Notes under the pieces: generated by a model | Database searches by the model: none | Seen by the model: the letters and a program-made list of their open reading frames with translations, nothing else | Told to the model about the DNA's origin: nothing | Program-made: the position numbers and the translations under genes | DNA from: an uncultured Candidatus Saccharibacteria bacterium | GTDB lineage: Bacteria; Patescibacteriota; Doudnabacteria; UBA920; 2-01-FULL-46-14 | DNA: 64,000 nucleotides | Reading direction: 5' to 3' | NCBI GenBank assembly: GCA_964396685.1 | Contig: CAYNFS010000003.1 | Coordinates: forward strand, 110-64,109 | Part shown: in pieces, positions 2,840 to 50,357 of the stretch | Numbering within the stretch: position 1 is the stretch's first letter | Layout of the letters: each line of letters opens with the position of its first letter

Positions 2840-5314
2840 ATGGCCAAGCCTCTCAAACCGCTAAAAAACGAGTCTGGAATCGGCTATGTCAAGCCTCGCG
2901 TGCTCGAGGAAGAAATGCAGGAATCTTATCTTGATTACGCGATGAGCGTAATTGTCTCGCGCGCCCTGCCAGACGTGCGCGACGGACTTAAACCCGTGCA
3001 CCGCCGGATTCTTTACGCCATGAATGAACTGGGACTTAACCCCCAAGCGCGCTACCGCAAATCCGCAACGGTAGTGGGCGAAGTCTTAGGCAAATACCAT
3101 CCCCACGGGGATGTGGCCGTATACGATTCGCTGGTGAGACTAGCTCAAAATTTTGCCATGCGCTATCCCTTAGTGGACGGCCAGGGGAACTTTGGCTCTC
3201 TTGACGGGGATGCGCCGGCCGCCATGCGCTACTCGGAGTGCCGGCTGGCCCCTTTGTCTTTGGAATTGCTCTCGGAGCTTGATAGAGAGACGGTTGACTG
3301 GATGGATAACTACGATGCCACCAAAAAGGAACCCAAAGTCTTGCCGGCCAAGCTTCCAAACCTGCTCTTAAACGGCACTTTGGGCATTGCTGTCGGAATG
3401 GCTACCGACATTCCTCCGCATAACTTAGGAGAAATTGCGGCGGCGACCAGCGCTTTGATTGACAATCCCAAGCTTACCAGTGAAGATCTCATGGATTTTG
3501 TTTTGGGTCCTGATTTCCCAACCGGCGGAATCATCTACGACTGGAGCGCCATAAAAGCGGCCTACGCCACCGGCAAGGGCAGTGTTACTGTCCGGGCGAA
3601 AACCGAAATTGTTGAAGGAAAAGATGGAAATTTCCAGATCCTCATCACGGAAATCCCTTATCGCGTCAACAAAGCGACGCTTTTGGAAAAATTTGCCGAA
3701 CTGGTGCGCGACAAAAAGTTAGAAGGAATCAAAAATTTGCGGGACGAATCTGATAAAGACGGAGTAAGAATCGTAGTGGAGCTGAAAAAAGACGCCCTAC
3801 CCAACAAAATCCTCAACCAGCTTTTTAAATATTCCCAGCTTCAGGATGCTTTCCACCTTAATATGCTGGCTCTAGTTGAAGGAATTGAGCCGCGGGTTCT
3901 AAATCTCAAAATGATTTTGGAGTATTATATCGCTCACCGCCGCGAGGTCGTGGCCAGACGCACGCGTTTTGACTTAGAAAAATCCAAGGAGAGAGCCCAT
4001 ATCCTGGAAGGATTAAAAAAAGCGCTTGACCACATCGACGCCATAATCAAGGCTATCAAACAATCTCAAACCAAAGAAGAGGCTCACGCCGAACTTCAGA
4101 AAAAATTCAAGCTTTCGGACAAACAGGCAACCGCGATTTTGGAGATGCGTCTGCAGGCTCTGGCTGGCTTGGAGCAACGCAAGATCGAAGAGGAGCTTAA
4201 AGAAAAAAGACAGCTGATCAAAGAGCTGGAAGAGCTTCTGAAATCCCCCAAAAAAATTGATTCAGTGGTCAAGAAGGAGCTTGCCGATTTGACAACCAAG
4301 TTTTCGGACCCGCGCCGGACTAAGCTTATCAAACAGCCCATTGGCGAATTCAAAGCCGAGGATCTGATAGCTAACGAAGACGCAATCATCGTTGTTACCA
4401 AATCCGGCTATGTAAAAAGGCTGCCGCCTGACACTTACCGCAAACAAGGCCGAGGCGGCAAAGGAGTAATCGGCATCACCACCAAAGAAGAAGATGTGGT
4501 GGAGAAACTGCTTGCCGCTAAGACCCACGATGACGTTATGTTTTTTACCAACAAAGGGCGAGTTTTCCAGACCAAAATCTACGAGCTTCCCGAGACCTCT
4601 CGTACGGCCAAAGGCCAAGCCCTGGTGAACTTTCTAGAGCTTGCACAAGGCGAATTTGCAACTGCCGTGCTCACCTTTGGCAAAGCCGAGCGGACCGCGT
4701 ACAAATACCTTTTTATGGGCACTAAATTCGGCACAGTCAAAAAAACCGCAATCTCGGAGTTTGAAAAGGTCAGGCACTCCGGACTTATCGCCGTTAAGCT
4801 TCAAAGGGATGACGAGCTTAGATGGGTCAATCTCTCTTCGGGCAATGATGACGTCATGATGACCACGGCTGGAGGGCAGGCGATCAGATTTAAAGAAACG
4901 GATGTGCGCCCCATGGGGCGGACGGCCGCGGGAGTGCGCGGAATCAGACTCAAAAAAGACGATCTCGTCATGAGTGTGGATGTTATTGAAAAAAGCCGCG
5001 ATCCCAAAAACCTCCAAGTGCTGGTGATTTCGGAGTTGGGGTTGGGCAAAAAAACCCCTCTTATGGAATATAAGGTTCAGCGCCGGGGCGGATCGGGAAT
5101 CAAAACCATGAACATCACCAAAAAAACCGGAAAAATCGTAATAATGCATACTGTCAACCGGGCGGAAGAAGCAGACCTTGTGGTTATTTCCAAAATGGGG
5201 CAGACTCTGCGCACGGCTTTGGGCCAGATCTCTACCCTGGGACGCGCTACACAGGGTGTGAGAATCTTGAAACTTGAATCAGGCGATCAGGTGGCTTCTG
5301 CCGCAATTGTCTAA
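2840..5314 (+). CDS. gyrA: DNA gyrase subunit A
   Basis: 824 aa. [32 protein letters not shown] and the C-terminal beta-pinwheel repeats are classic GyrA. Confidence 0.95.
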
Positions 5315-5334
5315 AAATTGTGGTAAAATAGAAC

Positions 5335-5409
5335 GGGCGCATAGCTCAGCGGCAGAGCATCCGTCTTATACACGGCAGGTCCTAGGTTCGAATCCTAGTG
5401 CGCCCACCA
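5335..5409 (+). tRNA. tRNA, anticodon loop CTTATAC giving anticodon UAU (putative tRNA-Ile reading AUA), with encoded CCA
   Basis: Cloverleaf folded by hand. Acceptor GGGCGCA/TGCGCCC, D-stem GCTC/GAGC, anticodon stem TCCGT/ACGGC with one 27-43 mismatch, T-stem CTAGG/CCTAG, T-loop TTCGAAT, discriminator A, 3' CCA. Confidence 0.75.
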
Positions 5410-5414
5410 AAGTC

Positions 5415-6386
5415 ATGACAGGGCAACAATCGCTAATTGACTACATCAAACAAAATCTCCGAAACGGTTTCCAGGAATCGGAAATCAGGCAGGCCTTGCA
5501 TCAAGCTGGCTGGGGCACTTTGGATATTGAGGATGGATTTCGGGAAGCCAAGGGTGCCAAAACCCTCGGAAAATTTATTGATACGCAAAAACTCCTGCCG
5601 CAACCTGCAAATCGTCAAAAAATCCTGACAATTTTAACCCTCGCGCTTACTCTGCCCGTAATCGGTTTGGGCAGTTTCTGGCTCTATCAAAAATATGCCT
5701 CCCCAGATATTCCAGAGCCCGAAGGGCAAGTGGAAGGGACTCAAAATGCAAACTTAACATCCGGCCTCCAAGAGGCCCAAGGCCGTGATGAGCAGCGTCT
5801 CAAAGATACAACCGGCCTGAAACAAGCTTTAGAATTATATTTTCAACAACATCAACAGTATCCCCCAAAAATCAGCGAGCTTGTAAGCCAAAAGCTAATT
5901 GCCGAAGTTCCGCGCGACCCAAAAAGCGACGAGCCGTATCTCTACCGGAGTTTGGGAGAACCGGCGCTGCATTACTTTTTGGCTTTTATACTGGAAACTA
6001 AAGCCCGAGGGCTCAAGCCTGGCCTGCAAGTCGTTTATTCGGAAGAGGAAATCTCGCCAGAACTTTTTCAGAGATATCAATCTTTGATCAGCGGCGCTGT
6101 TACTCCATTGGGCGCGGAGGGACTTAAGATCACTAAGCTTGATGAAAAGCCGTTTCTCCCCCAAGAACCTGTGACTTTGGAAGTATATGGACAAAAAACC
6201 GCCGAACTTCTAAGCGCCAATATGATTATCCCCGGCTACTTAGAACAAGTAGACCAAAGCAGACCCTTGGTTTTCAAATTTTTGGCTCCTAAAAATCCTG
6301 GCCAATACCCGGTATACGTTTTTGGTTTTGATGGATCCGGCCAGGGCTACTTCCAAAAAACTTTGCTTGTCGTGGAAAATCCTTAA
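5415..6386 (+). CDS. membrane protein with cytoplasmic N-domain, one TM helix and a pseudopilin (GspG-like) domain
   Basis: Start moved downstream of the tRNA (MTGQQSLIDY). TM helix ILTILTLALTLPVIGLGSFWLY. RDEQRLKDTTGLKQALELYFQQHQQYPPKISEL...PRDPKSDEPYLY resembles the T2SS/T4P pseudopilin signature. Confidence 0.4.
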   Translation: MTGQQSLIDYIKQNLRNGFQESEIRQALHQAGWGTLDIEDGFREAKGAKTLGKFIDTQKLLPQPANRQKILTILTLALTLPVIGLGSFWLYQKYASPDIPEPEGQVEGTQNANLTSGLQEAQGRDEQRLKDTTGLKQALELYFQQHQQYPPKISELVSQKLIAEVPRDPKSDEPYLYRSLGEPALHYFLAFILETKARGLKPGLQVVYSEEEISPELFQRYQSLISGAVTPLGAEGLKITKLDEKPFLPQEPVTLEVYGQKTAELLSANMIIPGYLEQVDQSRPLVFKFLAPKNPGQYPVYVFGFDGSGQGYFQKTLLVVENP

Positions 6387-7819: not shown

Positions 7820-8302
7820 ATGATTATTTTAGGCATTGACCCCGGCACAGCAACAACCGGCTATGGAATTATCCAAATAAAAAAGGGTGCGTCACCCCGC
7901 CTTATTGAATATGGCTGTATCACCACCCCTAAAAGAAACAGACCGGAGAAGCGCCTTACCGAAATTTATAAGGATCTCAAAAAACTTATCAAAAAACACA
8001 AACCCGGTCTTCTGGCTGTTGAATCTTTATTTTTTTTCAAGAATCTGAAAACCGCGATTTCTGTGGCGCAAGCAAGAGGAGTGGTGCTTCTTTGCGCTTC
8101 TGAATCAAAAATTAAAATTGCAGAATTTGCTCCGCTTGAGGTCAAAATGTCGCTCACAAGCTACGGCCGAGCCGACAAGAAACAAGTGCAATATATGGTG
8201 AAAAAGCTTTTAGGGCTTAAAAACGCGCCCAAGCCCGACGACGCCGCCGACGCTTTGGCAGTGGCAATCTGCGCTTCCTCCCGCCTGTCATTCCAGGCTT
8301 GA
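7820..8302 (+). CDS. ruvC: Holliday junction resolvase RuvC
   Basis: MIILGIDPGTATTGYGII, with a C-terminal KPDDAADALAVAICA. Confidence 0.9.
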   Translation: MIILGIDPGTATTGYGIIQIKKGASPRLIEYGCITTPKRNRPEKRLTEIYKDLKKLIKKHKPGLLAVESLFFFKNLKTAISVAQARGVVLLCASESKIKIAEFAPLEVKMSLTSYGRADKKQVQYMVKKLLGLKNAPKPDDAADALAVAICASSRLSFQA

Positions 8303-8386: not shown

Positions 8387-9508
8387 TTACCACGGCAGAT
8401 GTATCTGCGGATTGAATCCGAGATTCCGCAACCACTCCACACCTTCAGAGAAGGAACGCGAGTACACTGGAAATTGCGCGAATCCGCCTTGTTTTGTGTA
8501 GCCACCAACTTCCGTGGAGCAGTCGAGCGTGAACATACAACCTCCGCCTTTTGCACAACGCGCGCTTAAATCAAAATGTTCGCGGGTGGAGAACCACGGC
8601 AGAGCTTCTGGAATCGCGAGCGAATACAACGCGCCCACGAACTCGTACTCTTTGTCGCCGTAGAATGCTGGAGCAGTATGCATTGGAGTACCAGCACCGT
8701 ATTTCCAACGCGGCATACCGAAGATGATGTTTGCTCCATACTCCTTACGAAGATATAGCGCATGGTCAAGCGTGACCAGCGCATCAAAGCGCCAATCAGC
8801 CAATCCGCCGAGAAACGCAACGCCAGCAGTTTTGATGCCGCCTTGTAACGCATGATCGTGCGCGTCAAGGCGATACTGCATATTGGCTTTCGGGCCATGC
8901 GAATGTATTTCCTTGTACGATTCGGCAGCATAGGTTTCCTGCCAGACAATCGTGAAGGTACATCCAGCGTCCGCAAGCAAACGGTAGTCGTCAACTTGCT
9001 TGAGCGGAAAAAAGTTAATTCCCACATTCCGCGCGGCCGCCTTTCTTGTTGCGATAACCATCCGAGCGGCTTTTTGACCGTTCAGTAACTCCGGGTCTGT
9101 TGCCGCAACAAGCTCAATGTCGCCGTATCCAAGCTGAAGCAAGTGAATCGCTTCTTTGCGAACTTCTTCAGGATTCATGCGTATGAGTTTATCGTAGGGC
9201 ACGTTGCCGTGCCGCCATGGGCAATACACGCAGTAGTCGAGACAGCCGCCTATGCTTGGGTCGCCGTCAGATATGTACAGCGGCGGCATAAGAAACAACC
9301 GCTTCTGCCAAACCTCATCACGCCGACGAATTGCTTCCGCTATAACTTCCAGACGAAATGGTTCGTGGTCAGAAGCCAAGATCAGCTGTGCCAGATTTGG
9401 TAAATCAAACGATTCCCTCCGTAAGAGGTCGCCGACCTTATCCGCTGATCGTGTCTCCCAAATCAACAACTGTGCCAGTTTTTCTGGCTCAAAATACTCG
9501 CTAAACAT
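8387..9508 (-). CDS. radical SAM enzyme (CX3CX2C; BioB/ThiH/HydE-like), specific function unknown
   Basis: 373 aa. CLDYCVYCPW radical-SAM cluster motif at about residue 100, with a second Cys cluster CAKGGGCMFTLDC near the C-terminus. GC content is visibly higher than in the neighbouring genes. Confidence 0.6.
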   Translation of the reverse strand: MFSEYFEPEKLAQLLIWETRSADKVGDLLRRESFDLPNLAQLILASDHEPFRLEVIAEAIRRRDEVWQKRLFLMPPLYISDGDPSIGGCLDYCVYCPWRHGNVPYDKLIRMNPEEVRKEAIHLLQLGYGDIELVAATDPELLNGQKAARMVIATRKAAARNVGINFFPLKQVDDYRLLADAGCTFTIVWQETYAAESYKEIHSHGPKANMQYRLDAHDHALQGGIKTAGVAFLGGLADWRFDALVTLDHALYLRKEYGANIIFGMPRWKYGAGTPMHTAPAFYGDKEYEFVGALYSLAIPEALPWFSTREHFDLSARCAKGGGCMFTLDCSTEVGGYTKQGGFAQFPVYSRSFSEGVEWLRNLGFNPQIHLPW

Positions 9509-9584
9509 GGTGTCCCCCTTTCACAAGTTAAGGGACAAATATATCATATTCGCGAGTTCTTTTTTGACAATTTCCCCAAGCCAT

Positions 9585-9613
9585 TGACCTTTCTTCATAT
9601 TTTGGCTAGAATA
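9585..9613 (+). promoter_or_regulatory. sigma70-like promoter for the TrmB-family gene
   Basis: TTGACC, 17-nt spacer, TAGAAT, about 36 nt upstream of the ATG at 9650. Confidence 0.4.
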
Positions 9614-9649
9614 TAACAAATAACTGTCGTAATATTCTGACGATTATAT

Positions 9650-10447
9650 ATGAAAATTGACCAAATCACATCTGTTTTTACCAAATTGGGTCTGTCCAGC
9701 TTGGAAATAGACTGTTTTGTAGAATTGCTTAAAAAAAGCCCTCAAAAGGCTTCTGAACTCGCTAAAAAGTTTGCTCTGCCGAAAGCCACAGTACTTTCGG
9801 CTCTCTATCACCTGTCAGACGAGAAAGGATTAATTAAAAGAACTAAAATCAAGAACTCCTTTCATTTCCTTGTAGAAGATGCTGCAAGTGTTATAAATTT
9901 CATTACTCGAAAAGAGGAAATTCTGCTCGAAAACAAAAGAAATTTAGAACAACTCTTACCCGAACTTCGAGCCATGCAAAATCTGGATGCAATCAAGCCT
10001 AAAATTTTCTATTACGAGGGCAGGGGAGGACTAAAACAAGCCTTTGAACAAGTTTTGGAAGAAGCAGATGAAATAATTGGATATGGAAGTAATGAAGATG
10101 ATGTGAAATATTTGCCAGACTTATATCCGAGTTATTATGAAAGACGCGTCAAGAAAAAAATCCCAGTTAAAGCCATTATTCCCGGCACGGCATTTAATCT
10201 TCAAGAAACTTTAAAAAATGAAATTAAACACCTACGCGCAACTCATCTTATTCCAAAAGAATTTAACTATCCCATTCAAATAAATATCTATCGGCACACG
10301 GCCATTTTTTATTCCTTTGAGGAAAGTTTTGGGCTCGTAATAAAAAGCCGACCCATTGCCGACTGTTTGAAAAAAATCTTTGAATTGGCTTTTGAGAAAG
10401 CTGACGATACGGACAGAGAGATAAGAAAACTAATGAAACATGGATAA
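9650..10447 (+). CDS. TrmB-family transcriptional regulator
   Basis: N-terminal wHTH (LSSLEIDCFVELLKKSPQKASELAKKFALPKATVLSALYHLSDEKGLI) plus a C-terminal TrmB-type domain. AT-rich gene. Confidence 0.6.
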   Translation: MKIDQITSVFTKLGLSSLEIDCFVELLKKSPQKASELAKKFALPKATVLSALYHLSDEKGLIKRTKIKNSFHFLVEDAASVINFITRKEEILLENKRNLEQLLPELRAMQNLDAIKPKIFYYEGRGGLKQAFEQVLEEADEIIGYGSNEDDVKYLPDLYPSYYERRVKKKIPVKAIIPGTAFNLQETLKNEIKHLRATHLIPKEFNYPIQINIYRHTAIFYSFEESFGLVIKSRPIADCLKKIFELAFEKADDTDREIRKLMKHG

Positions 10448-10457
10448 TTTAAACACA

Positions 10458-10477
10458 CACATCACGATCGTGATGTG
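10458..10477. repeat. 20-bp perfect palindrome CACATCACGATCGTGATGTG between two convergent genes
   Basis: Self-complementary. Shares the core CACGATCGTG with the palindromes at 19034-19063 and 43797-43810. Confidence 0.7.
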
Positions 10478-10505: not shown

Positions 10506-11711
10506 TTATTTGATCCTCAAAAATCTCTTGCCCAAACGAATCAAACTACCTTTCGTAATTTTCACCACCTTTTTTTCGTCTGATACTTGAGCCCCATCTA
10601 TTTCCACAGCGCCTTCCTTGATCTTGCGTCTGGCTTCGGTTTTGGAGGAGGCCAATTTGCCCTCAACCAACAAGTCAACGATTGCGTATTTGCCAGGTTT
10701 TTTTTGTATTTCAAAATCCGCTTGGATATCTTTTAGAGATTTACCCTTTCCGAACTTCTTGTCAAAAGCGGCTTTGGCCAACGCGGCTTTTTTCCTGTCA
10801 TGATACATGTCGGTAATTTCCAGTCCCAATCTTTCTTTCCAGGCTTTGAAATCAAAATTGATATTCTCAAACCGCCTTTCCGGTTTCAGCAGTTCCAGCT
10901 CTTTTTCTGGGACATCCGTCAGAAGCAAAAAGTATTTGCGTACCAAATCATCCGGGATGGACATGATTTTGCTGTACATTTCGAGCGGCTTCTCCGACAA
11001 GCCGATAGAATTGCCAAAAGATTTGCTCATCTTCCTTACGCCGTCCAGGCCCTCGATTAAGGGAACTGTGATTATGTCTTGTTTTGGCAGACCGTAGCGG
11101 CGCTGCACTTTTCTGCCGGTTAGCAGATTGAATTTCTGATCCGTCCCGCCCAATTCCACATCCGCCTTAACCTCGACCGAATCATACCCCTGCAAAATTG
11201 GGTAAAGCACCTCCAGCATGCTTACGTCTCGCCCTTCTTTGATTCGTTTTTGAAAATCATCCCGTTCCAATGACCGGGCCACGGTAAACTTGCTGGTTAT
11301 TTCAATCAAAAACTTGAGCCCTTTCTTTTTGTACCATTCAGAATTGTATCGAACTTCAGCCTTGCCGACGTCTACAGCCTTGCCCATTTCTTTCAGATAA
11401 CCCCTCATATTGGTCTTGGCTTCGCGTTCAGTTAAAACCGGCCGCAGTTCACTCCTGCCCGATGGGTCGCCTATGGTGGCGGTAAAATCTCCGATAATCA
11501 AAACTGCTTTGTGGCCCAGCTCTTGAAACTGCCGCAATTTTCTCAAAACCACGGTGTGGCCCAAATGCAAATCTTTGGCCGTCGGATCAATACCAAGCTT
11601 AACGCGCAGTTTTTTGCCTGATTTCAAAGCACCCTCTAGATGTTTCTTGTCTATGATTTCTTCTACGCCTCGCGTCAAAAGCCGATCAACACTGCTTGAA
11701 TCCATTTTCAT
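10506..11711 (-). CDS. tyrS: tyrosyl-tRNA synthetase
   Basis: HIGH-type motif HLGH, KMSKS motif KMSKSFGN, a TyrS-like LRQFQELGHKAVLIIGDFTATIGDPSG, and a C-terminal S4 domain. Confidence 0.9.
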   Translation of the reverse strand: MKMDSSSVDRLLTRGVEEIIDKKHLEGALKSGKKLRVKLGIDPTAKDLHLGHTVVLRKLRQFQELGHKAVLIIGDFTATIGDPSGRSELRPVLTEREAKTNMRGYLKEMGKAVDVGKAEVRYNSEWYKKKGLKFLIEITSKFTVARSLERDDFQKRIKEGRDVSMLEVLYPILQGYDSVEVKADVELGGTDQKFNLLTGRKVQRRYGLPKQDIITVPLIEGLDGVRKMSKSFGNSIGLSEKPLEMYSKIMSIPDDLVRKYFLLLTDVPEKELELLKPERRFENINFDFKAWKERLGLEITDMYHDRKKAALAKAAFDKKFGKGKSLKDIQADFEIQKKPGKYAIVDLLVEGKLASSKTEARRKIKEGAVEIDGAQVSDEKKVVKITKGSLIRLGKRFLRIK

Positions 11712-11723
11712 AAAGGCTCAAAC

Positions 11724-12947
11724 TCAATTTATTAAGGCATCATACCAATTATAATTATAAACCCCTTTCACAAGAAAATCGCTTTTCGCCTGGGAAATTA
11801 TGCCCATTCTTCCACTGATTGACTCAAAGCTTTTTTGGACCTTCAACAGAGACGCGGCATGGTGCGGGGTAATCGTGGCGCTACTCTTTATTTCCAAAAG
11901 ATGAAGCCTGCCCCCCAATTCTATAACCAAATCAATTTCCAGGCCATCGCGGGTTCGAAAATAATAAAGCGAAGGCTGTTGGCCGTGGTGCATAAATCGC
12001 TTCCAAAAATCCGTAACCACTAGCGTTTCAAATAAAGCCGGAAAAGCTAAACCGCCCAAAAGCACCTCTTCGTTCTGCAGCCGCAGTAAATAAGCGGCCA
12101 AGCCGGTATCAGTAAAATAGAGCTTCGGGCTTTTGATTAATCGCTTTCCCAAATTTCGGTAATACGGAGGAATTAATAAAACTTGATAGCTGGCGATCAA
12201 AACCGACAGCCACCTTTTTGCTGTGGCGACCGAAATCCCGGTATCTCTGGCCAATTCAGAAAGGTTCAAGATTTGGCCGGTCCGAATGGCGCACAGGCGG
12301 AGGAAGGTCTCAAACAAGAACAAATCTCCAACCTGCTCAATGCTCCTTACGTCCCTTTCCAAATAGGTGTTAATATACGAACTGCACCAAATTTCCGGCT
12401 CTAATTTGCGGCTCAAGGCAAGCTCTGGATAACTGCCGCGGATGAGCACTTTAGCCAGAGAAGTCAACGGTTTTTTCACTGGCAAGCGATCAGGGCTTAA
12501 TTTCAACCAATTCTCGACACTGGCGCTTTTTTCGCCAAGCCCCAGCCTCTCCGCCAAGGAAAAAGGCAACAGATGCAAAACCGCTACTCTTCCGGCCAAA
12601 GATTCGCTCAAATTTTTCATTAAAACAAAGTTTTGCGAGCCGGTTAAAAGCCACTGTCCCGGCTTTCTGCGAAGATCGATTTGTTCTTTCACATAAATCA
12701 GCAGCTCCGGCACATATTGGATTTCATCCAAGATCAAGGGGGGGTGATTGTGGGCCAAAAATTGGCGAGGATCAGCTTTGATTTTGGCCCTCACTTCCGG
12801 ATCCTCGAGATTGATATATTTTGCCCTATTCAGAAAAAGCGCTTTCAAAAGAGTGGTTTTCCCCGATTGTCTGGGGCCGGTAACCACTATCGCCGGGAAG
12901 GTTCGGGCCGCCTTTTTTATAATCTGGCTTAAAGTCCGAGCTTTCAT
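11724..12947 (-). CDS. AAA+ ATPase with DUF4143 (COG1373-type)
   Basis: Walker A VVTGPRQSGKTTLLKAL followed by the architecture typical of the ubiquitous AAA_14/DUF4143 proteins. Confidence 0.75.
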   Translation of the reverse strand: MKARTLSQIIKKAARTFPAIVVTGPRQSGKTTLLKALFLNRAKYINLEDPEVRAKIKADPRQFLAHNHPPLILDEIQYVPELLIYVKEQIDLRRKPGQWLLTGSQNFVLMKNLSESLAGRVAVLHLLPFSLAERLGLGEKSASVENWLKLSPDRLPVKKPLTSLAKVLIRGSYPELALSRKLEPEIWCSSYINTYLERDVRSIEQVGDLFLFETFLRLCAIRTGQILNLSELARDTGISVATAKRWLSVLIASYQVLLIPPYYRNLGKRLIKSPKLYFTDTGLAAYLLRLQNEEVLLGGLAFPALFETLVVTDFWKRFMHHGQQPSLYYFRTRDGLEIDLVIELGGRLHLLEIKSSATITPHHAASLLKVQKSFESISGRMGIISQAKSDFLVKGVYNYNWYDALIN

Positions 12948-13065: not shown

Positions 13066-14031
13066 TCAACCGCGGTTGAGCCGTTCTTCTAGCTCCTCCA
13101 GTTTAGCCATGAGCTTCTGGCGCATTCCCGCCGCGAACGGGTTGCCGTTCTCGATAGTCTCAAAGAGCTCCCAGGAATCGCTGCCCAAAAGTCTGGTAGC
13201 CTCCATCAGGTGTTCGTATGCCTTGGTAGCTAGCTCCGAATCACCGACCCCAAGCTCTGACATGGCGCGGGCGATGAAATGCGTTAATCCCTGCACCCTA
13301 GCCATCTCGCGGTCGTGCTCCGCTGGCTCCTTGACGATGGGATGCAAACGAAAACCACGTCGTAGCAGATTGTGGACTATGTTCACTCGCTTTTCGCTTA
13401 TGCGGACTGGACACAGCACAATCTTATGCCCATTCAGGCCGTCTTTGGCGCTTTGCGGTCCAAACAGAGGATGAGTCGCAAGAATCTCCACTCCAGACGG
13501 CAAGTATTGGAGCATGAGATTAACCGGCTCCTGCTTGACCGAACAGACATCAACAATCAAAGCTCCAGGCCGAAGAGCGGAGGAGATCTGTTTCAGCAGC
13601 TCTTCCAGATTTTGGAAAGGGACTGCCAAAACGATAATCTCCCTGTCTACTGCCTCTGCAAGAGAGCCCCAGCAAAATCCTGTCTGCGGGCTTTCGGGCT
13701 GCTTTATGTCCGTAACCATAACATCACAGAAGGCGCGAGCGAGGTGTGCGGCGGCAAACCTGCCAAAGTTTCCGAAACCAATGATGCCGAGAGGCCGATT
13801 GCACTTGCGGTCCTTTTCCCAGTCGGAAACCACTTGGCTACATTTCGTGCAGTGAATGTCGCTTCCGCATAGCTGGAAGCAACCAATTTGGGTCCAATTT
13901 TCTGGCTGGCATTTTTCCCGGTGCGACTCCAGAATGAACAGTAGCCATGGGTAATCGTGCTGAAGCCGCTGCCAAGTTGATCCGCCACCTCCGCTACAAT
14001 CACCCGCATCGTATCTGTTACCTTTCGTCAT
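13066..14031 (-). CDS. prephenate/arogenate dehydrogenase-like NAD(P) oxidoreductase with a Cys-rich N-terminal extension
   Basis: Rossmann motif IIGFGNFGRFAA and a TyrA-like HPLFGP motif. The N-terminal 80 aa carry 7 Cys (CFQLCGSDIHCTKC). The gene is GC-rich relative to its flanks. Confidence 0.5.
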   Translation of the reverse strand: MTKGNRYDAGDCSGGGGSTWQRLQHDYPWLLFILESHREKCQPENWTQIGCFQLCGSDIHCTKCSQVVSDWEKDRKCNRPLGIIGFGNFGRFAAAHLARAFCDVMVTDIKQPESPQTGFCWGSLAEAVDREIIVLAVPFQNLEELLKQISSALRPGALIVDVCSVKQEPVNLMLQYLPSGVEILATHPLFGPQSAKDGLNGHKIVLCPVRISEKRVNIVHNLLRRGFRLHPIVKEPAEHDREMARVQGLTHFIARAMSELGVGDSELATKAYEHLMEATRLLGSDSWELFETIENGNPFAAGMRQKLMAKLEELEERLNRG

Positions 14032-19120: not shown

Positions 19121-19579
19121 TCAAATTTTGGCCCTAATCACTACTCTTCTCTCCGGTTCTTCGCCCTCACTGGTTGTTTCAATATCAGAATACTTCGAAA
19201 TTTCCGCATGCACAACTCTACGCTCGTAAGAAGACATTGGTTTTAGGTACAAAATTTCTTTAGTTTCTCGCACTCGCTCGGCCGCTTGCCTTGCCAGCTC
19301 TTGCAAATACTCCACTCGGCTTTTTTTGTAGCCTTCTACATCGACAACAAAGGGCACGGTTTCCGGCAACTGCTTGTGCACCAAAACCCTTGCCAGATAT
19401 TGCAGGGCGGCGAGGTTGTTCCCGTGGTTGCCGATCAATATTCCTGAATCTGAAGTCTTGATATTAAAAAACAAGGTTTCTTCGGAAACCCCTGTCTCTA
19501 TCTCCGCACTCACACCCATGTTCTCTAGAAGTTCGCGCAAGACTTTTTTGATAAGCTCCTGCTGTTCCTCGCTCATGTT
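19121..19579 (-). CDS. Jag/KhpB-type RNA-binding protein (KH + R3H)
   Basis: MSEEQQELIKKVLRELLENMGVSAEIE... and a C-terminal R3H-like MSSYERRVVHAEISKYSDIETTSEGEEPERRVVI. Its position next to yidC is conserved. Confidence 0.8.
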   Translation of the reverse strand, partial: NMSEEQQELIKKVLRELLENMGVSAEIETGVSEETLFFNIKTSDSGILIGNHGNNLAALQYLARVLVHKQLPETVPFVVDVEGYKKSRVEYLQELARQAAERVRETKEILYLKPMSSYERRVVHAEISKYSDIETTSEGEEPERRVVIRAKI

Positions 19580-20262
19580 TTCTTCATTATATAGTACTGC
19601 TGGCCAATGGCAAAGAGGGTGGTTACGACCCAATAAAGCGAAAGGCCGGCCGGCAACTGCCAGGCGATAAATACCGTGATGATCGGCATAAGATAAGTCA
19701 TCTGTGCCGACATCATGGCCGAGGTTTTGTCAGAAGTTTTTGGTCTTGCGGGAGCCATCATTTTGGACTGAATAAACTGGAAGCCGCCGGCGAGAATTGC
19801 CAACACATAACTTGGTGTGCTCAATTCCAGAACTCCTAAAAAGTTCGTATTGATTGCCCCCGGGTTTGCCACAAAAGGATAAAGCTCGGCGGCTACATCT
19901 CCGTTAAGCCCTGTCAAAAAAACGCGGTAAAGCGCGATCAAAATGGGCAATTGCACCAGAAGCGGAAGACAGGAAGAAAACGGGTTTACTTTCTTTTGCT
20001 GGTAAAACTCCATAATTGCCTTGGTCTGCGCTTCTTTGTTATCCTTGTGTTTTTCTCTAATTTCATCCAGATGCGGCTGCAGCTGTTGCAGCTCTTTCTG
20101 GGAGCGAAGAGACTTCTGGAAAGAAGGAACCAACATTATTCTAACCAGCAATGTCAACGCAACAATCGCCAGCCCCATATCATGCCAGGGGATTACATTG
20201 TAAAACCAAATGAGGACATTAAGCAGGGGTTTAGTGAGGATGAGATGAAAAAAATCGCCCAT
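19573..20262 (-). CDS. yidC: membrane protein insertase YidC (short form)
   Basis: PLLNVLIWFYN...GLAIVALTLLVRIMLVPSFQKSLRSQKELQQLQP...NPFSSCLPLLVQLPILIALYRVF. Confidence 0.9.
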   Translation of the reverse strand: MGDFFHLILTKPLLNVLIWFYNVIPWHDMGLAIVALTLLVRIMLVPSFQKSLRSQKELQQLQPHLDEIREKHKDNKEAQTKAIMEFYQQKKVNPFSSCLPLLVQLPILIALYRVFLTGLNGDVAAELYPFVANPGAINTNFLGVLELSTPSYVLAILAGGFQFIQSKMMAPARPKTSDKTSAMMSAQMTYLMPIITVFIAWQLPAGLSLYWVVTTLFAIGQQYYIMKKT

Positions 20263-20273
20263 GGTTTAGTTCG

Positions 20274-20510
20274 TTAGTTGACTGGGTCGTACTTCGGGGC
20301 GGCAAAGGGATTGCATCGTAAAATTCTCGCAAACCCTCTGGCCATGCCGCGAAAAAAGCCGTGTTTTTTCATGGCTTCCTTTACAAACTCGGAACAGGTC
20401 GGCGAATATCTGCAATATCCGTAAGGAAACCGCACTTTTCCCCAAAAACTGTGGTCCGGCGAGAGGATGGCTTGATAAATTTCAATAAGTTTAACTAAAA
20501 CGCTTGTCAT
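20274..20510 (-). CDS. yidD: membrane protein insertion efficiency factor YidD
   Basis: 78 aa, CRYSPTCSEFVKEAMKKHGFFRG... is the YidD/haemolytic-domain signature. Confidence 0.8.
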   Translation of the reverse strand: MTSVLVKLIEIYQAILSPDHSFWGKVRFPYGYCRYSPTCSEFVKEAMKKHGFFRGMARGFARILRCNPFAAPKYDPVN

Positions 20511-20854
20511 ATTTTTATAATTCTCCCCCTTTTTAGCAAATTTTCTAGTTCTTTCCGAATTTCCCCCCCCTCCAGACGCAAAATTCCGGGGCGCCCATGA
20601 AAAACAACTTCAAATCCCGGCTGAATTTCAGATTTAAGCTTCGCGATGTGGGCTCTTAAAATCCGCTTAATTCGATTACGGGCGGCAATTTTCCTTGCCT
20701 GCTTCTTGGAGATAACAAAACCAAAGCGCGAAGCGTTTTGGTTTTTCTTGCTGGCATAAAAAATCCGCAGGTTGGGTGAAGAAAGTCTTTCCCCATTTTT
20801 GTAAATTTGCGCAAATTCCCGCGACTTGACTAAACGCAAAACTTTTGGCAACAT
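20507..20854 (-). CDS. rnpA: ribonuclease P protein component
   Basis: MLPKVLRLVKSREFAQIYKNGERLSSPNLRIFY...RNRIKRILRA. Typical RnpA, positioned between rpmH and yidD. Confidence 0.85.
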   Translation of the reverse strand: MLPKVLRLVKSREFAQIYKNGERLSSPNLRIFYASKKNQNASRFGFVISKKQARKIAARNRIKRILRAHIAKLKSEIQPGFEVVFHGRPGILRLEGGEIRKELENLLKRGRIIKI

Positions 20855-20860
20855 GCAAAA

Positions 20861-20995
20861 TCAAACACTTAGCCGTCTGCGGCCTTTCTGCCTTCTTCGG
20901 GAAAGAACTCGCGCTCCCGTCCGGGTTTTCATGCGCGCCCGAAACCCATGCCTTCTTTTGCGGTGTTTTCTTTTGGGCTGGTAAGTTCGCTTCAT
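20861..20995 (-). CDS. rpmH: 50S ribosomal protein L34
   Basis: The minus-strand translation [44 protein letters not shown] is an almost invariant L34. Not in the ORF track because of its small size; located by hand. Confidence 0.85.
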
Positions 20996-21181
20996 TCCAA
21001 ATTGCTATTATAACCCCTAAACAGTTTAATTTACTTGCTAATTATATCTTCGCCGTAATCGAAAGTCAATCTTTCCTAAATTGTTAAGAGCTTTTACACA
21101 AGTTATCTACAGAACATTGATTTTTTTGCTTAACATTGGGAAAAATCCTCAATTTTACATGTTGATAACCCTTCTGTTAAA
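20996..21181. promoter_or_regulatory. candidate oriC / dnaA promoter region
   Basis: rpmH-dnaA intergenic region with the strand switch of flanking genes. DnaA-box-like TTATCTACA (21103-21111) and TGTTGATAA (21160-21168, reverse TTATCAACA), plus an AT-rich stretch at 21110-21150. Confidence 0.4.
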
Positions 21182-22564
21182 ATGCAACCTATGAGTAGTC
21201 TCAAACAAATCTGGCAAGCGGTCTTGGGAAATTTAGAACTTTCGTTATCCAAGGCCAATTTTACTACTTGGTTTAAAAATACCTCTGTTCTTGAGCATGG
21301 GATAGATAAAATTGTAATTGGCGTCCCCAATACTTTCACCAAAGAGTGGCTGATGAACAAATACCATCAGGAAATTCTCAAAGCCGTCCGGGCAATAAAT
21401 CCCGAAATCAAGCAGGTTGAGTATCAAATTATTAACCGGTTCGTCCCGCAAGCCGAAGCTTCAGGGCATGCCGTCACCGCGGCTTTCCGCGTCCAGCCCT
21501 CTTCGGCCAGCCCCCAGCCGAAAAATAGCCTCGCTTTAAATGGGGGGCTTAACCCCAAATATACCTTCCAAAACTTCATTATTGGCAGCAACAACGAGTT
21601 GGCCGCGGCCGCCGCCCAAGCCGTAGCCAAAAATCCGGGCAAATCTTACAACCCCTTATTTATCTATGGGGGAGTTGGTTTGGGAAAAACTCACCTGATG
21701 CAGGCGATTGGGAATGAATTTCTCAAAAACAGGGAGAAAACAAAAATTCTTTATGCCGCTACCGAAAAATTTACCAATGAATTTATCCAAGCCGTGCGGG
21801 ACAATAAGGCAGAATCTTTTAAAAACCTTTACCGCAATGTAGATGTTCTGCTTATCGACGATATTCAGTTCTTGGCGGGAAAGGAACAAACCCAAGAAGA
21901 ATTTTTCCACACCTTCAATACTCTACACCAGACAAACAAGCAAATTGTTCTTTCCTCCGACCGCCTGCCTAAGGACATCCCCGCCATTGAAGAGCGCCTA
22001 GTGTCCCGCTTTGAGTGGGGGATGATTGCCGACGTCCAGCCCCCCGATTTTGAAACCCGGCTCGCTATTTTGCGTTCCAAAGCAAGGGAGCGTGGCTATG
22101 ATGTTGACCCCGCCGTTTTGGAGTATATTGCTCAAACTGTTGAAAACAACATCCGCGAACTAGAAGGCTCCCTTAATAGACTGATGGTTTATTGCCAATT
22201 AAACAATTCTCAACCTTCTTTGGAGAAAGTCAAAGACGCTCTGTCTAGCATTATTTTCTCTCCCAAGCGGCGCGGTGTTTCTGCCAAGAAAGTCATGGAG
22301 ATTGTTTCGGATTTCTACAATGTCTCTTTGGATGATCTAACCCGCCAGTCACGCAAAAAAGAGTATGTTGGTCCAAGACAGATGGCAATGTATATAATTA
22401 GGAAAGAGCTCCAAACAAGCCTGCCAATGATTGGAGAAATTTTTGGGGGCCGTGACCACACAACTGTAATTCATGCTATTGATAAAATTCAATCCCTGAT
22501 AAAAAATAAAGAAGTTGTCAAACAGGAAGTAAGCCTTCTTGTCAACCGTATTTATGCGGATTAG
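21182..22564 (+). CDS. dnaA: chromosomal replication initiator DnaA
   Basis: AAA+ Walker A GGVGLGKTHLMQAIGNE, sensor motifs and the C-terminal DnaA-box-binding domain (MAMYIIRKELQTSLPMIGEIFGGRDHTTVIHAIDKI). Confidence 0.95.
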   Translation: MQPMSSLKQIWQAVLGNLELSLSKANFTTWFKNTSVLEHGIDKIVIGVPNTFTKEWLMNKYHQEILKAVRAINPEIKQVEYQIINRFVPQAEASGHAVTAAFRVQPSSASPQPKNSLALNGGLNPKYTFQNFIIGSNNELAAAAAQAVAKNPGKSYNPLFIYGGVGLGKTHLMQAIGNEFLKNREKTKILYAATEKFTNEFIQAVRDNKAESFKNLYRNVDVLLIDDIQFLAGKEQTQEEFFHTFNTLHQTNKQIVLSSDRLPKDIPAIEERLVSRFEWGMIADVQPPDFETRLAILRSKARERGYDVDPAVLEYIAQTVENNIRELEGSLNRLMVYCQLNNSQPSLEKVKDALSSIIFSPKRRGVSAKKVMEIVSDFYNVSLDDLTRQSRKKEYVGPRQMAMYIIRKELQTSLPMIGEIFGGRDHTTVIHAIDKIQSLIKNKEVVKQEVSLLVNRIYAD

Positions 22565-22765
22565 TTTATGATATACTGGGGACTACCCCTGGACAACTCC
22601 TTCTTTTTTTCCAATTCAAACCCGTCCTCCACTAATCTTCAACAAACCATCAACACAAAATCTTATTTCCTTTTTTAGAATTCCCCCAATCCCAAGGAGA
22701 ATTTCTCGTTTACAACATTTCCCCACCCTCTACTGTTATTATTAATTTTATTTTTAGAAATAATT

Positions 22766-23860
22766 ATGAAAATAATATGCACCCAAAAAAATTTACACCA
22801 AGGGTTGACCTACACAACAAGAATAATAAATAGCGGGGCGGCCCTGCCTGTTCTAAACAACATTTTGTTTAAAACAGACCAAGGAAGACTGAAAATTTCA
22901 GCAACAAACCTGGAAATTGCCGTAAACACTTGGGTGGGGGGAAAAATTGAAGAAGAGGGCGAGCTAACCATCCCAGCAAAACCTATAAATGAGTACATTG
23001 CAAGCCTTCCAGCAGAAAGAATTGTCATTTCTGCCCAGAACGAAACAATGAAGTTGGCGGGAGAGAATACAGAAACACACATCAAAGGCCTTCCAGCAGA
23101 AGAATTTCCCCTCATTCCCAGAGTGGAGGGAGAAGTATACGGAAAGGTGAATGGAAAAGATTTAAAGTTGGCGATTTCAGAAGTAGCTTACGCCACAGCA
23201 TTCTCAGAGACCCAGCCAGAAATTTCGGGAGTTTTGTTTAGATTTGAAGAGAAGACTTTAACCCTTGCCGCCACCGACCGGTACCGGCTTGCGGAAAAGA
23301 AACTTCCCCTTTCAGGTGAGGGGGTTTCTGCAAGGCAAATAATTATTCCTGCGAGAGCGGTTGGTGAAATTGGAAGAATCATGGGAGAAGGAGAAGTAGA
23401 AATTTTTCTGACAGAAAGTCAGGCGTGTTTTAGAGCCGATGCTATTGAACTTATCACCAGGCTTATCGACGGCCAATACCCAGATTATAAACAGATAGTC
23501 CCCAAAAGTTTCACAACCGAAGTTAAAATAAACCGCCCCAAGTTTGTGCAGTCTCTAAAAGCAACAAGCGTTTTTGCCTCCGACACCAACAACGTGGAGT
23601 TTTTTGTGAACCCGGCAAGCAAGGAGCTCGTCATTAAGTCCCAGTCAAGCCAAATCGGGGATAGCGAAATTCATTTGGGGGTTGAGGGTGAAGGGGAAAA
23701 AAATTCAATCATTTTCAATTATCGCTATCTCCTCGAGTGTTTGAATAATTTGACAGATGAGGAAGTTAATCTTCGTCTCATTTCGCCTTCTTCGCCGGCA
23801 GAAATCATTCCGGCGGGGCGGGAAGATTATCTCTATCTTGTTATGCCGATAAAAATTTAA
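22766..23860 (+). CDS. dnaN: DNA polymerase III beta sliding clamp
   Basis: 364 aa with three-domain clamp architecture, immediately after dnaA. Ends ...DYLYLVMPIKI. Confidence 0.9.
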   Translation: MKIICTQKNLHQGLTYTTRIINSGAALPVLNNILFKTDQGRLKISATNLEIAVNTWVGGKIEEEGELTIPAKPINEYIASLPAERIVISAQNETMKLAGENTETHIKGLPAEEFPLIPRVEGEVYGKVNGKDLKLAISEVAYATAFSETQPEISGVLFRFEEKTLTLAATDRYRLAEKKLPLSGEGVSARQIIIPARAVGEIGRIMGEGEVEIFLTESQACFRADAIELITRLIDGQYPDYKQIVPKSFTTEVKINRPKFVQSLKATSVFASDTNNVEFFVNPASKELVIKSQSSQIGDSEIHLGVEGEGEKNSIIFNYRYLLECLNNLTDEEVNLRLISPSSPAEIIPAGREDYLYLVMPIKI

Positions 23861-24960
23861 TGTTTGTCTCACGGGTTTCTTATGAAAACTTCCGGAATTT
23901 CCCAAGCCTTGATTTGACCCTTGATCAAGGCTTTGTAATTTTGACTGGTGAAAATGGGGCGGGGAAAACTAACTTTTTGGAAGGAATTTATTTTGGAGCA
24001 GGACTGCGACGCTTTCCCGAGAGCAAACTCCCACAACTTGTGAGAGAAGGGGAGGTTTTTAGCAAAATCAAAATTTCTTCCAGGAACAAGGAAGAGCAAA
24101 ATCAGGAATTGGTGGTGGAGAGAAAGGCTCAAGAAGAGGGGGGAATTTTAAAATTAAAAATCAACAGCCAACCAGCGCTCCGGATAAGTTATACGGCTAT
24201 TTTGCCGGTGATAAGCTTCCTCCCTCAAGATTTAAGTCTTCTTACCAGGTCGCCTGGCGGAAGGCGGCGCTTTTTAAATGAAACCTTATCCTCAAGCTTT
24301 CCCGAATATCGCCTAGCCCAAACCCATTACCAGAAAGCGCTTAAACAACGAAACGAGCTTCTTGCGAAAATTCGCAACGGCGATGCCTTGAGAGAAGAGC
24401 TTGAGATTTGGGATGAAAAACTTGCAGAGACAGGCAGCACAATCACCAAATTTCGAGAAGAGTTTTTTAGCTATTGCAACCAACACCTCGCGGAGATAAT
24501 GGAAGAGGTTTCTGCCGATCTTTTGTCAAGCAAGCTTGGTTTTTCCCCTGGCGGGAATTCGGACAGGAACGAGTTTTTGAAGCTGCTTCGAAGCTCCCAG
24601 GTCCAGGATTTGCGTCTGGCAAACACCATGGTCGGGCCGCATCGAGATGATTTTTCGGTTTTTTTGGGGCGCAAAGAAGCGGTCGGATATCTTTCCCGAG
24701 GCCAGATGCGGAGCTTAACTTTGGCCTTGAAAATCTTAGAAAGGAATTATTTTGAAAAACACCGGAAAACAATTCCCATTATGCTTTTCGATGACGTTTT
24801 TTCGGAATTTGACAGTCACCATCAGCGGCGGCTGGCAAGCTTTTTAGCAAACTTTAAGCAGCCATTTTTGACAACAACACACCCCGAAGAGATCAAAGCG
24901 TTTCTGCCTGAAATTGCCCAGATTTTTAATGTTGACAAAGGAAAGGTTAGCAGTGTTTGA
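23860..24960 (+). CDS. recF: DNA replication and repair protein RecF
   Basis: Walker A ILTGENGAGKTNFLEGIYF and a C-terminal Walker B/signature region. dnaA-dnaN-recF synteny. Confidence 0.9.
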   Translation: MFVSRVSYENFRNFPSLDLTLDQGFVILTGENGAGKTNFLEGIYFGAGLRRFPESKLPQLVREGEVFSKIKISSRNKEEQNQELVVERKAQEEGGILKLKINSQPALRISYTAILPVISFLPQDLSLLTRSPGGRRRFLNETLSSSFPEYRLAQTHYQKALKQRNELLAKIRNGDALREELEIWDEKLAETGSTITKFREEFFSYCNQHLAEIMEEVSADLLSSKLGFSPGGNSDRNEFLKLLRSSQVQDLRLANTMVGPHRDDFSVFLGRKEAVGYLSRGQMRSLTLALKILERNYFEKHRKTIPIMLFDDVFSEFDSHHQRRLASFLANFKQPFLTTTHPEEIKAFLPEIAQIFNVDKGKVSSV

Positions 24961-50188: not shown

Positions 50189-50357
50189 CTTATCAACTTA
50201 TACGCTTTACACGCTTACGAACTTACTCATTGGGCCCAACTGGCTCTTGATTTTTTTATGCGCTTCTGTTAGATTAAGCTATCTTTGCTGAAGTTTCTGG
50301 CAGAGAACCCGGCCACGGGCAGTGGCGATTCCATGTGGCGATTAGCCACAAAAAGGA

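Follow-up and report, generated by a model that had tools for sequence, protein, structure and literature searches.

A divergently transcribed gene pair was analysed in a stretch of 64 000 nucleotides (the window; contig CAYNFS010000003.1 of GenBank assembly GCA_964396685.1, positions 110 to 64,109) from an uncultured Candidatus Saccharibacteria bacterium placed by GTDB among the Doudnabacteria of the Patescibacteriota. The pair consists of a gene for a radical S-adenosylmethionine (SAM) protein of 373 amino acids (aa), which has the ThiH/HydG/NosL aromatic-amino-acid-lyase fold and belongs to a Patescibacteria-centred clade (8387..9508, minus strand), and of a trmB gene for a 265-aa TrmB-family winged-helix regulator of TrmBL2-like length (9650..10447, plus strand). 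Their starts are separated by a divergent control region of 141 bp (9509..9649, both strands), and the pair is flanked by ruvC (7820-8302, plus strand) on one side and by tyrS (10506-11711, minus strand) on the other. In a preliminary description made from the sequence, a 373-aa radical SAM open reading frame (ORF) with the motifs CLDYCVYC and CAKGGGCMFTLDC had been reported between ruvC and tyrS, paired over about 140 bp with a TrmB regulator; the ORF was recovered at 8387-9508 (minus strand) with both motifs, its position was borne out by domain annotation of the window, and the helix-turn-helix domain of the regulator scored above the cut-off. The radical SAM gene is intact; it is full length and begins with a conserved MFS start preceded by a GGGGGA ribosome-binding site.

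Family, fold and pocket of the radical SAM protein

The protein was compared with Pfam and NCBIfam models. It passed the cut-off of the Radical_SAM model PF04055 (30.6 bits against 29.5), and its [4Fe-4S]/SAM cluster motif C89-x3-C93-x2-C96 (codons 9221..9244, minus strand) was invariant at all three cysteines, both across the 35 members of the clade and in the outgroups ThiH and HydG. The best curated NCBIfam match was ThiH (TIGR02351) with 159 bits against a cut-off of 380; HydG (TIGR03955) reached 124 bits against 312, PylB and HydE were marginal, and the scans gave no match to BioB (TIGR00433, or PF06968 for the BATS domain) and, in NCBIfam, none to NosL (TIGR04158). The hidden Markov model (HMM) comparison with radical SAM subfamilies that had been suggested earlier thus led to the neighbourhood of ThiH and HydG, not to BioB. 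Among solved structures, a profile of 35 homologues matched HydG 4WCX (215 bits), ThiH 7PD1 (172 bits) and NosL (61 bits). A model was generated with AlphaFold from the homologue alignment (predicted local distance difference test, pLDDT, 92.7; predicted template modelling score, pTM, 0.92) and searched with Foldseek, the best matches being ThiH 7PD1/7PD2 with template modelling (TM) scores of 0.86-0.89 and root mean square deviations of 2.4-3.0 Å. HydG (TM 0.79-0.82) and NosL (TM 0.79-0.81) ranked ahead of HydE, BioB, PylB and MqnE, with BioB at only ~0.66-0.69. The match to the ThiH/HydG/NosL fold ran over the full length and included the N-terminal helical domain and the full TIM barrel.

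A hypothetical protein of a Candidatus Doudnabacteria metagenome-assembled genome (MAG), HY396_01815, was 100% identical to the window protein. The clade as a whole comprised ~74 clusters (at 90% identity) that scored above 217 bits and were 37-82% identical to the window protein, almost all of the named ones being Patescibacteria. Below the clade, scores dropped abruptly to HydG and ThiH (82-119 bits, 27-31% identity); in an all-against-library HMM search the clade was followed by graded sister families (220-300 bits), whose sampled members had a GGG-x-(L/I)F-x-x-x-C-x-T-x-PGGY-like motif in common, and then by canonical ThiH and HydG. Because the scores fall abruptly and those to ThiH and HydG lie far under the equivalog cut-offs, the protein is assigned to a small, separate clade within the ThiH/HydG/NosL fold.

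Two structural features that had been ascribed to the protein were not upheld. The supposed N-terminal extension of ~95 aa corresponds, as judged by alignment, to the normal N-terminal helical domain of ThiH and HydG, which align from residue ~6-20 and carry their own CX3CX2C in the same column. In the supposed C-terminal cysteine cluster CAKGGGCMFTLDC (residues 318-330), only C330 of the three cysteines was invariant; many homologues have A, S or V in place of C318, and the more distant half of the clade has A or M in place of C324. An auxiliary Fe-S cluster at CAKGGGCMFTLDC was rejected, since three conserved cysteine ligands would be required and one is conserved. A 7-residue insertion, GDPSIGG (residues 82-88, ~9245-9265, minus strand), was present just before the first cluster cysteine in subclade A, to which the window protein belongs, and absent from subclade B, ThiH and HydG.

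The HMMER alignment to 7PD1 (chain index equal to the numbering of PMC9046217 + 10) served to map the pocket positions, and the roles of T299, R300, R306, S318, S321 and E158 were taken from the tyrosine-bound ThiH structure (PMC9046217). Residues 307-337 (STRE ... GGGCMFTLDCSTEVGGY; codons 8498..8590, minus strand) correspond to the strand-8 region, which in ThiH forms a wall of the substrate pocket and here is remodelled. Residues QETY190-193, H202, K207, R213, H249, R267 and S307-T308-R309 were invariant in the clade and also in the ThiH and HydG outgroups. T299 and R300 of ThiH, which face the substrate amino group where the 5'-deoxyadenosyl radical abstracts hydrogen (PMC9046217), are therefore among the retained positions (T308 and R309); the counterpart of R300 in NosL is R323, an arginine facing the alpha-amino group of the substrate (PMC9046217). 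R306, the phenolate-stabilising arginine that marks tyrosine lyases, is replaced by S315 (the clade has S or N at this position), S318 of the phenolate clamp by T327, the adjacent pocket position G320 by D329, and S321, the bulge serine of the clamp, by C330; of the tyrosine-phenolate clamp, the alignment leaves T308 in place, with T327, C330 and S315 at the remaining positions. E158, which pairs with the substrate carboxylate, is replaced by N165 (invariant in the clade), E133, its substitute in HydG, by V134 (with an invariant E132 two residues ahead), and the channel residues Y76 and Y181 by M74 and W189. In the conservation table these pocket states were invariant or nearly so across the clade. 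At the strand-8 bulge there was no gap relative to ThiH in the HMMER alignment, so that, at the level of sequence, the length is retained; NosL is without the one-residue bulge insertion of ThiH (PMC9046217). Read through this alignment, the pocket is conserved where radical chemistry is initiated and rebuilt where the ring tip and the carboxylate are recognised.

A HydG-type maturase, making CO and cyanide ligands for a metal cofactor, would agree with HydG being the top PDB profile match (215 bits) and with N165, which is the HydG state at ThiH E158. The protein ends, however, at residue 373, where the C-terminal domain of HydG begins in the alignment, and is without that ~90-aa domain and its auxiliary-cluster cysteines; its 124 bits lie under the 312-bit cut-off, and no hydE, hydF or hydA was found in any compared neighbourhood. 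Such a role is scarcely credible, and since the HydG features that were tested (C-terminal domain, hyd context) failed, the protein should not be filed as HydG.

Neighbouring genes in relatives

Genome and metagenome scans yielded 40 loci (labelled with L-numbers, e.g. L037), which were reduced to 25 lineages by ORF clustering and dereplication. A TrmB-family gene was the divergent upstream neighbour of the radical SAM gene in 14 of the 25 lineages and, within subclade A, in 12 of the 13 lineages whose upstream DNA extended far enough. The same position was taken by either of two TrmB subtypes, which share only ~25% identity. Because the divergent pairing is conserved across relatives, it is probably functional. 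A methyltransferase gene adjoined the radical SAM gene in 14/25 lineages, 11 of them with a PF10017 (EgtD-like) protein of ~250-300 aa and 3 with a class I enzyme, which overlaps upstream in L020, overlaps downstream in L038 and is fused to the radical SAM protein in L010/L035 (613 aa). The replacement of one methyltransferase by a non-homologous one, together with the fusion, gives good support to a functional coupling of the radical SAM protein and the methyltransferase. The PF10017 partner subfamily (46 clusters) was about as small as the radical SAM clade, and many of its contigs agreed in length with contigs listed for the radical SAM matches. A likeness of the partner methyltransferase to TAL effectors was rejected as the product of spurious repeat-summed matches in a single-sequence PDB search; the profile search led, weakly, to EgtD.

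No PF10017 partner was detected in the window by tblastn, and no PF10017 protein tagged HY396 in a search of 5.8 billion proteins, although the MAG may be incomplete. The methyltransferase was also absent beside the radical SAM gene in L004, L007, L021/22 and L023; given its absence from the window and these four lineages, it cannot be essential in cis. L037, the closest relative found (92% identical over the last 125 residues), carries a PF10017 gene directly downstream, so the loss in the window lineage looks recent. The earlier statement that no partner genes accompany the enzyme is accordingly true of the window and untrue of its relatives, which carry an adjacent or fused methyltransferase, L037 included, as the comparison of genome neighbourhoods proposed in the same place brought out along with the conserved TrmB pairing. 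Loss of the partner while L037 keeps it would also fit a decaying remnant, but the ORF is full length with every clade-invariant residue intact, the gene has promoter-like sites and a ribosome-binding site, and four other lineages likewise keep the radical SAM and TrmB genes without the methyltransferase; decay is very improbable.

One clade member, 38% identical to the window protein, sits in a thiS-thiG-thiE-radical SAM operon of a marine archaeal MAG, on a contig that is archaeal by its genes (ribosomal protein L10e, SHMT, FolD, PurN, PurH and CysS). L011, L030 and L031 were 97-99% identical in those genes and were for that reason counted as one observation (one species); L039 has the same downstream genes. 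In a neighbour-joining tree the thi-linked branch was nested among methyltransferase-linked members and not basal, and the thi-linked member shares the rebuilt pocket, with differences at E132Q, E310A and S315N. With a nested member in such an operon, the clade can probably make dehydroglycine, and its use for thiamine would seem to have been recruited later, as a derived trait. No thiF was found in the 64-kb window either; thiS, thiG and thiE were found neither in the window (tblastn) nor in the flanks of the other lineages, but in the one archaeal lineage of 25 only.

The archaeal operon bears directly on whether the window protein could be a true, if divergent, ThiH, providing ThiG with dehydroglycine for the thiamine thiazole. 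For such an enzyme it would be fitting that ThiH gives both the best NCBIfam and the best structural match, that a 38%-identical member lies beside thiS, thiG and thiE, and that a ThiF-family gene lies directly downstream of the radical SAM gene in L034. The score of 159 bits is nevertheless far under the 380-bit cut-off, the tyrosine-phenolate markers R306 and S321 are replaced, thiS, thiG and thiE are missing from the window and the other lineages' flanks, the thi-linked loci stand for a single, nested species that differs at three residues, and the ThiF-family match in L034 falls far under every equivalog cut-off. Searches of the window with Rfam gave no thiamine pyrophosphate (TPP) riboswitch or other cis-acting RNA at the gathering threshold and, at a relaxed threshold, only a chance-level match to His_leader (E=0.29); the 5' leader of the radical SAM gene is only ~30 nt long. 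The usual partner is, moreover, a methyltransferase, for which we know of no role in the established pathway of thiazole synthesis. A genuine ThiH is thus quite improbable, on the favoured reading the enzyme is not a thiamine ThiH in this organism, and since the ThiH features that were tested failed (cut-off, tyrosine clamp, E158, thi context), it should not be filed as ThiH.

The same operon also weighs on a NosL-like enzyme, which would cleave the C-alpha/carboxyl bond of an aromatic amino acid and rearrange the latter to a small acid for tailoring by the methyltransferase, as part of secondary metabolism. Both carboxylate-pairing glutamates that PMC9046217 ties to C-alpha/C-beta selectivity are absent, the tyrosine-specific arginine is absent as in NosL, the fold matches NosL with TM 0.79-0.81, and the family is rare and patchy and has a methyltransferase partner, all of which would accord with this chemistry. 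It is nonetheless unlikely, as the profile scored 61 bits to NosL against 172-215 to ThiH and HydG and TIGR04158 was not matched, there was no gap at the strand-8 bulge that NosL is without, the nested member belongs to a thiazole operon, which needs dehydroglycine, and no other biosynthetic genes are conserved nearby.

In the sister families, the radical SAM gene was found in or beside operons for LivJ/H/M/G/F-type ATP-binding cassette (ABC) importers (L041, 3509-8979; L044, 627-3529; L045/46, 854-3623 in L045), and L041 and L044 also contain class I methyltransferase genes. The locus L047 (3838-11516) comprises a LivJ-like binding protein, a 680-aa PF10017-domain protein, the radical SAM protein, two permeases and two ATPases; in L043 a class I methyltransferase gene overlaps the radical SAM start, and in L042 a gene of this class is divergent. 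These operons suggest that the couple of radical SAM protein and methyltransferase is older than the Patescibacteria clade and linked to the uptake of amino acids, and the Liv-type context points to an amino acid as substrate. The importer-linked sister loci look like an undescribed import-and-process operon.

Several single loci of the comparison had further neighbours. A B12-binding radical SAM protein is encoded directly downstream of the clade gene in L019 (941-2392), and the downstream gene of L034 (1000-1941) encodes a ThiF/MoeB-family E1-like protein. A CofE-like (PF01996) gene lies two genes upstream of the radical SAM gene in L008 (2233-2988), and another lies beside a truncated TrmB orthologue, with a Vut_1 transporter gene, in L053/L054 (5704-7070 in L053); the CofE-like proteins of L008 and L053 are 30% identical to each other.

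Regulator, control region and other features of the window

The 265-aa regulator matched the Pfam TrmB model PF01978 with 37 bits against a cut-off of 25.6, and a profile of 13 orthologues matched Pyrococcus furiosus TrmB 3QPH (residues 5-158) and TrmBL2 5BPD (residues 4-203). No model for a C-terminal sugar-binding domain of TrmB was matched in the Pfam scan of the protein, and a single-sequence AlphaFold2 model reached a pLDDT of 46. The orthologue group contained ~56 clusters at 53-71% identity, below which identity fell to 30%, and all were Patescibacteria where named. TrmB is better conserved than the radical SAM protein; in L029 the two are 61% and 43% identical to their window counterparts. 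Four further contigs with TrmB orthologues were inspected, one of which (L051, Falkowbacteria) showed the canonical methyltransferase-radical SAM/TrmB layout. Exclusivity of the regulator to the radical SAM gene was rejected, as three of these four contigs had no radical SAM gene nearby. In L049 (5001-6843, Kerfeldbacteria) a TrmB orthologue (55% identical) lies beside a second TrmB paralogue, and no radical SAM gene was found within 5 kb.

Two promoters had been described in the spacer. Promoter-like sites were located for the radical SAM gene (TTGTCA-16-TATGAT, 10/12; -35 at 9565-9570, -10 at 9543-9548, minus strand) and for trmB (TTGACC-17-TAGAAT, 10/12; -35 at 9584-9589, -10 at 9607-9612, plus strand). 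The two stand back to back, each directed at its own gene, and this arrangement is what speaks for them; the number of sigma70-like sites, four in the 2.4-kb region, was not above the shuffle expectation of 2.8 +/- 1.4. An inverted-repeat search detected an imperfect palindrome, ATAACTGTCGTAATATTCTGACGATTAT (9620..9647, 76% complementary), between the -10 box and the start codon of trmB; a similar ATCGTCAG-N7-9-YGAYRR box is found at the same place in L004, L005 and L012, and loci with the other TrmB subtype have inverted repeats of their own in this place. The palindrome is a candidate TrmB operator through which the regulator may control its own gene and the divergent radical SAM promoter.

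At the other end of trmB, the perfect 20-bp palindrome CACATCACGATCGTGATGTG (10458..10477) that had been taken as the boundary of an island was confirmed between the stop codons of the convergent genes trmB (10447) and tyrS (10506). It occurs only once in the window (expectation from shuffled sequence, 0), its RNA folds at -13.2 kcal/mol (z=-2.6) on one strand and at -12.9 kcal/mol (z=-2.3) on the other, and it was flagged as terminator-like for tyrS, with weak T-runs. It is probably a hairpin serving both genes as a bidirectional terminator, and this ordinary explanation is preferred to an island boundary.

The island itself had been proposed on guanine-cytosine (GC) content. In a comparison of the 44 genes in the window that encode at least 150 aa (mean GC 0.474, standard deviation 0.040), the radical SAM gene was not GC-shifted (GC 0.517, z=+1.06; third-position GC, GC3, z=+0.42); the AT-richness of trmB was confirmed (GC 0.362, z=-2.77, the lowest of the 44). 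Most related loci with both genes show the same order, radical SAM gene above locus mean above trmB, at 32% or at 51% GC. Because this order recurs in relatives, the contrast is read as a trait of protein composition and not as an island, and a GC island was rejected on the per-gene z-scores and this shared pattern. The real GC outlier of the window is a 367-aa ORF at 50285-51388 (plus strand; GC 0.59, z=+2.9, GC3 0.71) without a Pfam match.

Beyond tyrS lie an ATPase gene with AAA_14 and DUF4143 domains (11724-12947, minus strand; absent from related loci) and a tyrA-like gene (13066-14031, minus strand), whose prephenate-dehydrogenase-like product has a Cys-rich N-terminal stretch of ~75 aa and matched PDH_N with 68 bits, under all NCBIfam equivalog cut-offs. 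The tyrA-like gene, tyrS and the ThiH-like radical SAM gene place three tyrosine-related genes inside 5.7 kb. A tyrosine theme was rejected as coincidence or synteny, because the tyrA-like gene occurs in no related locus and adjacency to tyrS is common to L004 only. The window also contains a replication-origin neighbourhood with gyrA, yidC, dnaA, dnaN and recF (2840-5314 and 19573-24960); the cumulative GC-skew minimum lies near 20-22 kb, ~11 kb from the radical SAM/TrmB locus. A tRNA-Ile gene with anticodon TAT (UAU), an uncommon way of reading AUA codons, is located at 5335-5409 (plus strand); a mechanically called ORF (5274-6386) overlaps it, so the real start of that gene must lie further downstream.

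Proposed function and comparison with known systems

We favour, with a probability of roughly 0.55, the reading that the protein is a functional member of an unnamed ThiH/HydG/NosL radical SAM lyase subfamily, controlled by TrmB and not a canonical ThiH. By homology, the [4Fe-4S] cluster bound by the CX3CX2C motif would cleave SAM to the 5'-deoxyadenosyl radical, and the retained T308-R309 pair suggests that this radical would abstract a hydrogen from the alpha-amino group of a bound amino acid; both steps, in this order, are well supported by homology. The resulting aminyl radical may then fragment next to C-alpha, the likeliest split being that between C-alpha and C-beta, which would yield 2-iminoacetate (dehydroglycine) and a side-chain fragment. 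The fragmentation site and the substrate are the uncertain part of this proposal. As the phenolate-clamp end of the pocket is rebuilt (Ser315, Cys330, Asp329), the substrate would be either not tyrosine or tyrosine in the form of the neutral phenol. Plausible candidates include an N-methylated amino acid and another aromatic or a basic one. The enzyme would have a SAM-dependent methyltransferase, of EgtD type or a class I substitute, as its partner in most relatives, and the window genome would recently have lost the methyltransferase gene beside the radical SAM gene. Expression would be controlled from the 141-bp region by the adjacent TrmB regulator, which probably binds the palindrome overlapping its own promoter.

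Several observations weigh against this reading. The pocket was mapped by sequence alignment. Both acidic residues proposed to steer C-alpha/C-beta cleavage are gone (E158 to N165 and E133 to V134), which leaves room for C-alpha/carboxyl cleavage of NosL type. The methyltransferase is absent from the window, from four other lineages and from the database proteins of the MAG, and TrmB orthologues also occur away from any radical SAM gene, so that the regulator may have a wider role than that of a dedicated one. A full-text search of the available literature found nothing on the clade, including the biochemistry of any member.

More tentatively, and with somewhat less than an even chance, the radical SAM protein and the methyltransferase may constitute an undescribed ancient two-enzyme module, found in Liv-type importer operons of free-living bacteria and, reduced to the TrmB-regulated radical SAM gene with or without the methyltransferase, in Patescibacteria. 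The module would act on an imported amino acid other than one bound as tyrosine phenolate, by N-methylation and radical fragmentation, and its product would have no relation to thiamine or to the maturation of hydrogenases. The window copy would then be a minimal, methyltransferase-free version. ThiH, HydG, NosL and CofH use one radical SAM scaffold to fragment aromatic amino acids to very different ends; to these the clade would add a new substrate or regiochemistry, with amino-group abstraction kept, the ring-tip pocket rebuilt and a methyltransferase as partner. Uncharacterised radical SAM subfamilies are common, and this one stands out because its pocket change is clear and testable, its methyltransferase partner is conserved and its host group is unusual. 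Patescibacteria genomes encode very little metabolism and few regulators, and a regulated radical enzyme in them probably serves a real need, or a use against or with hosts. The importer-linked operons of other bacteria point to organisms that may be more amenable to tests of the function.

Among characterised systems, ThiH (TcThiH, 7PD1/7PD2) shares with the window protein the full-length fold (TM 0.87-0.89), the position of the CX3CX2C motif, the N-terminal helical domain, the T-R pair facing the substrate amino group, the QETY/H/K/R core, the ungapped strand 8 and a length of ~370 aa. It differs in that the window protein is 24% identical to it, scores 159 bits against the cut-off of 380 and has R306 changed to S, S321 to C, G320 to D, S318 to T, E158 to N and Y76/Y181 to M74/W189, and in that thi genes form its context where the window clade has a methyltransferase and a TrmB regulator instead. 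HydG (4WCX, 4RTB) has a homologous barrel (215 bits; TM 0.79-0.82) and an Asn at the position of ThiH E158, whereas the window protein is without the C-terminal auxiliary-cluster domain and a counterpart of E133, has lost R306 and has no hyd context. NosL (4R33), a tryptophan lyase (3-methyl-2-indolic acid synthase), resembles it in fold (TM 0.79-0.81) and in having neither the tyrosine-specific arginine nor a direct carboxylate-pairing glutamate, but is more distant in sequence (61 bits); the window protein has the strand-8 length of ThiH and no thiopeptide context.

Enzymes of the EgtD type are amino-acid alpha-N-methyltransferases (PF10017 denotes aromatic-amino-acid alpha-N-methyltransferases). 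The partner proteins of the relatives pass PF10017 (28-50 bits against 23) and have EgtD as their best PDB and NCBIfam matches; they are, however, shorter (~250 aa against ~320 aa), align over the N-terminal 110-170 residues only, score 30 bits against an equivalog cut-off of 291 and have no egtB/egtC/eanB-type genes nearby. The regulator, finally, agrees with TrmB and TrmBL2 (3QPH, 5BPD) in its N-terminal winged helix, in ~200 residues aligned to TrmBL2 and in its TrmBL2-like length, and differs from these archaeal-type proteins in being bacterial (Patescibacteria) and in lying beside a radical SAM gene and not beside sugar transporter genes.

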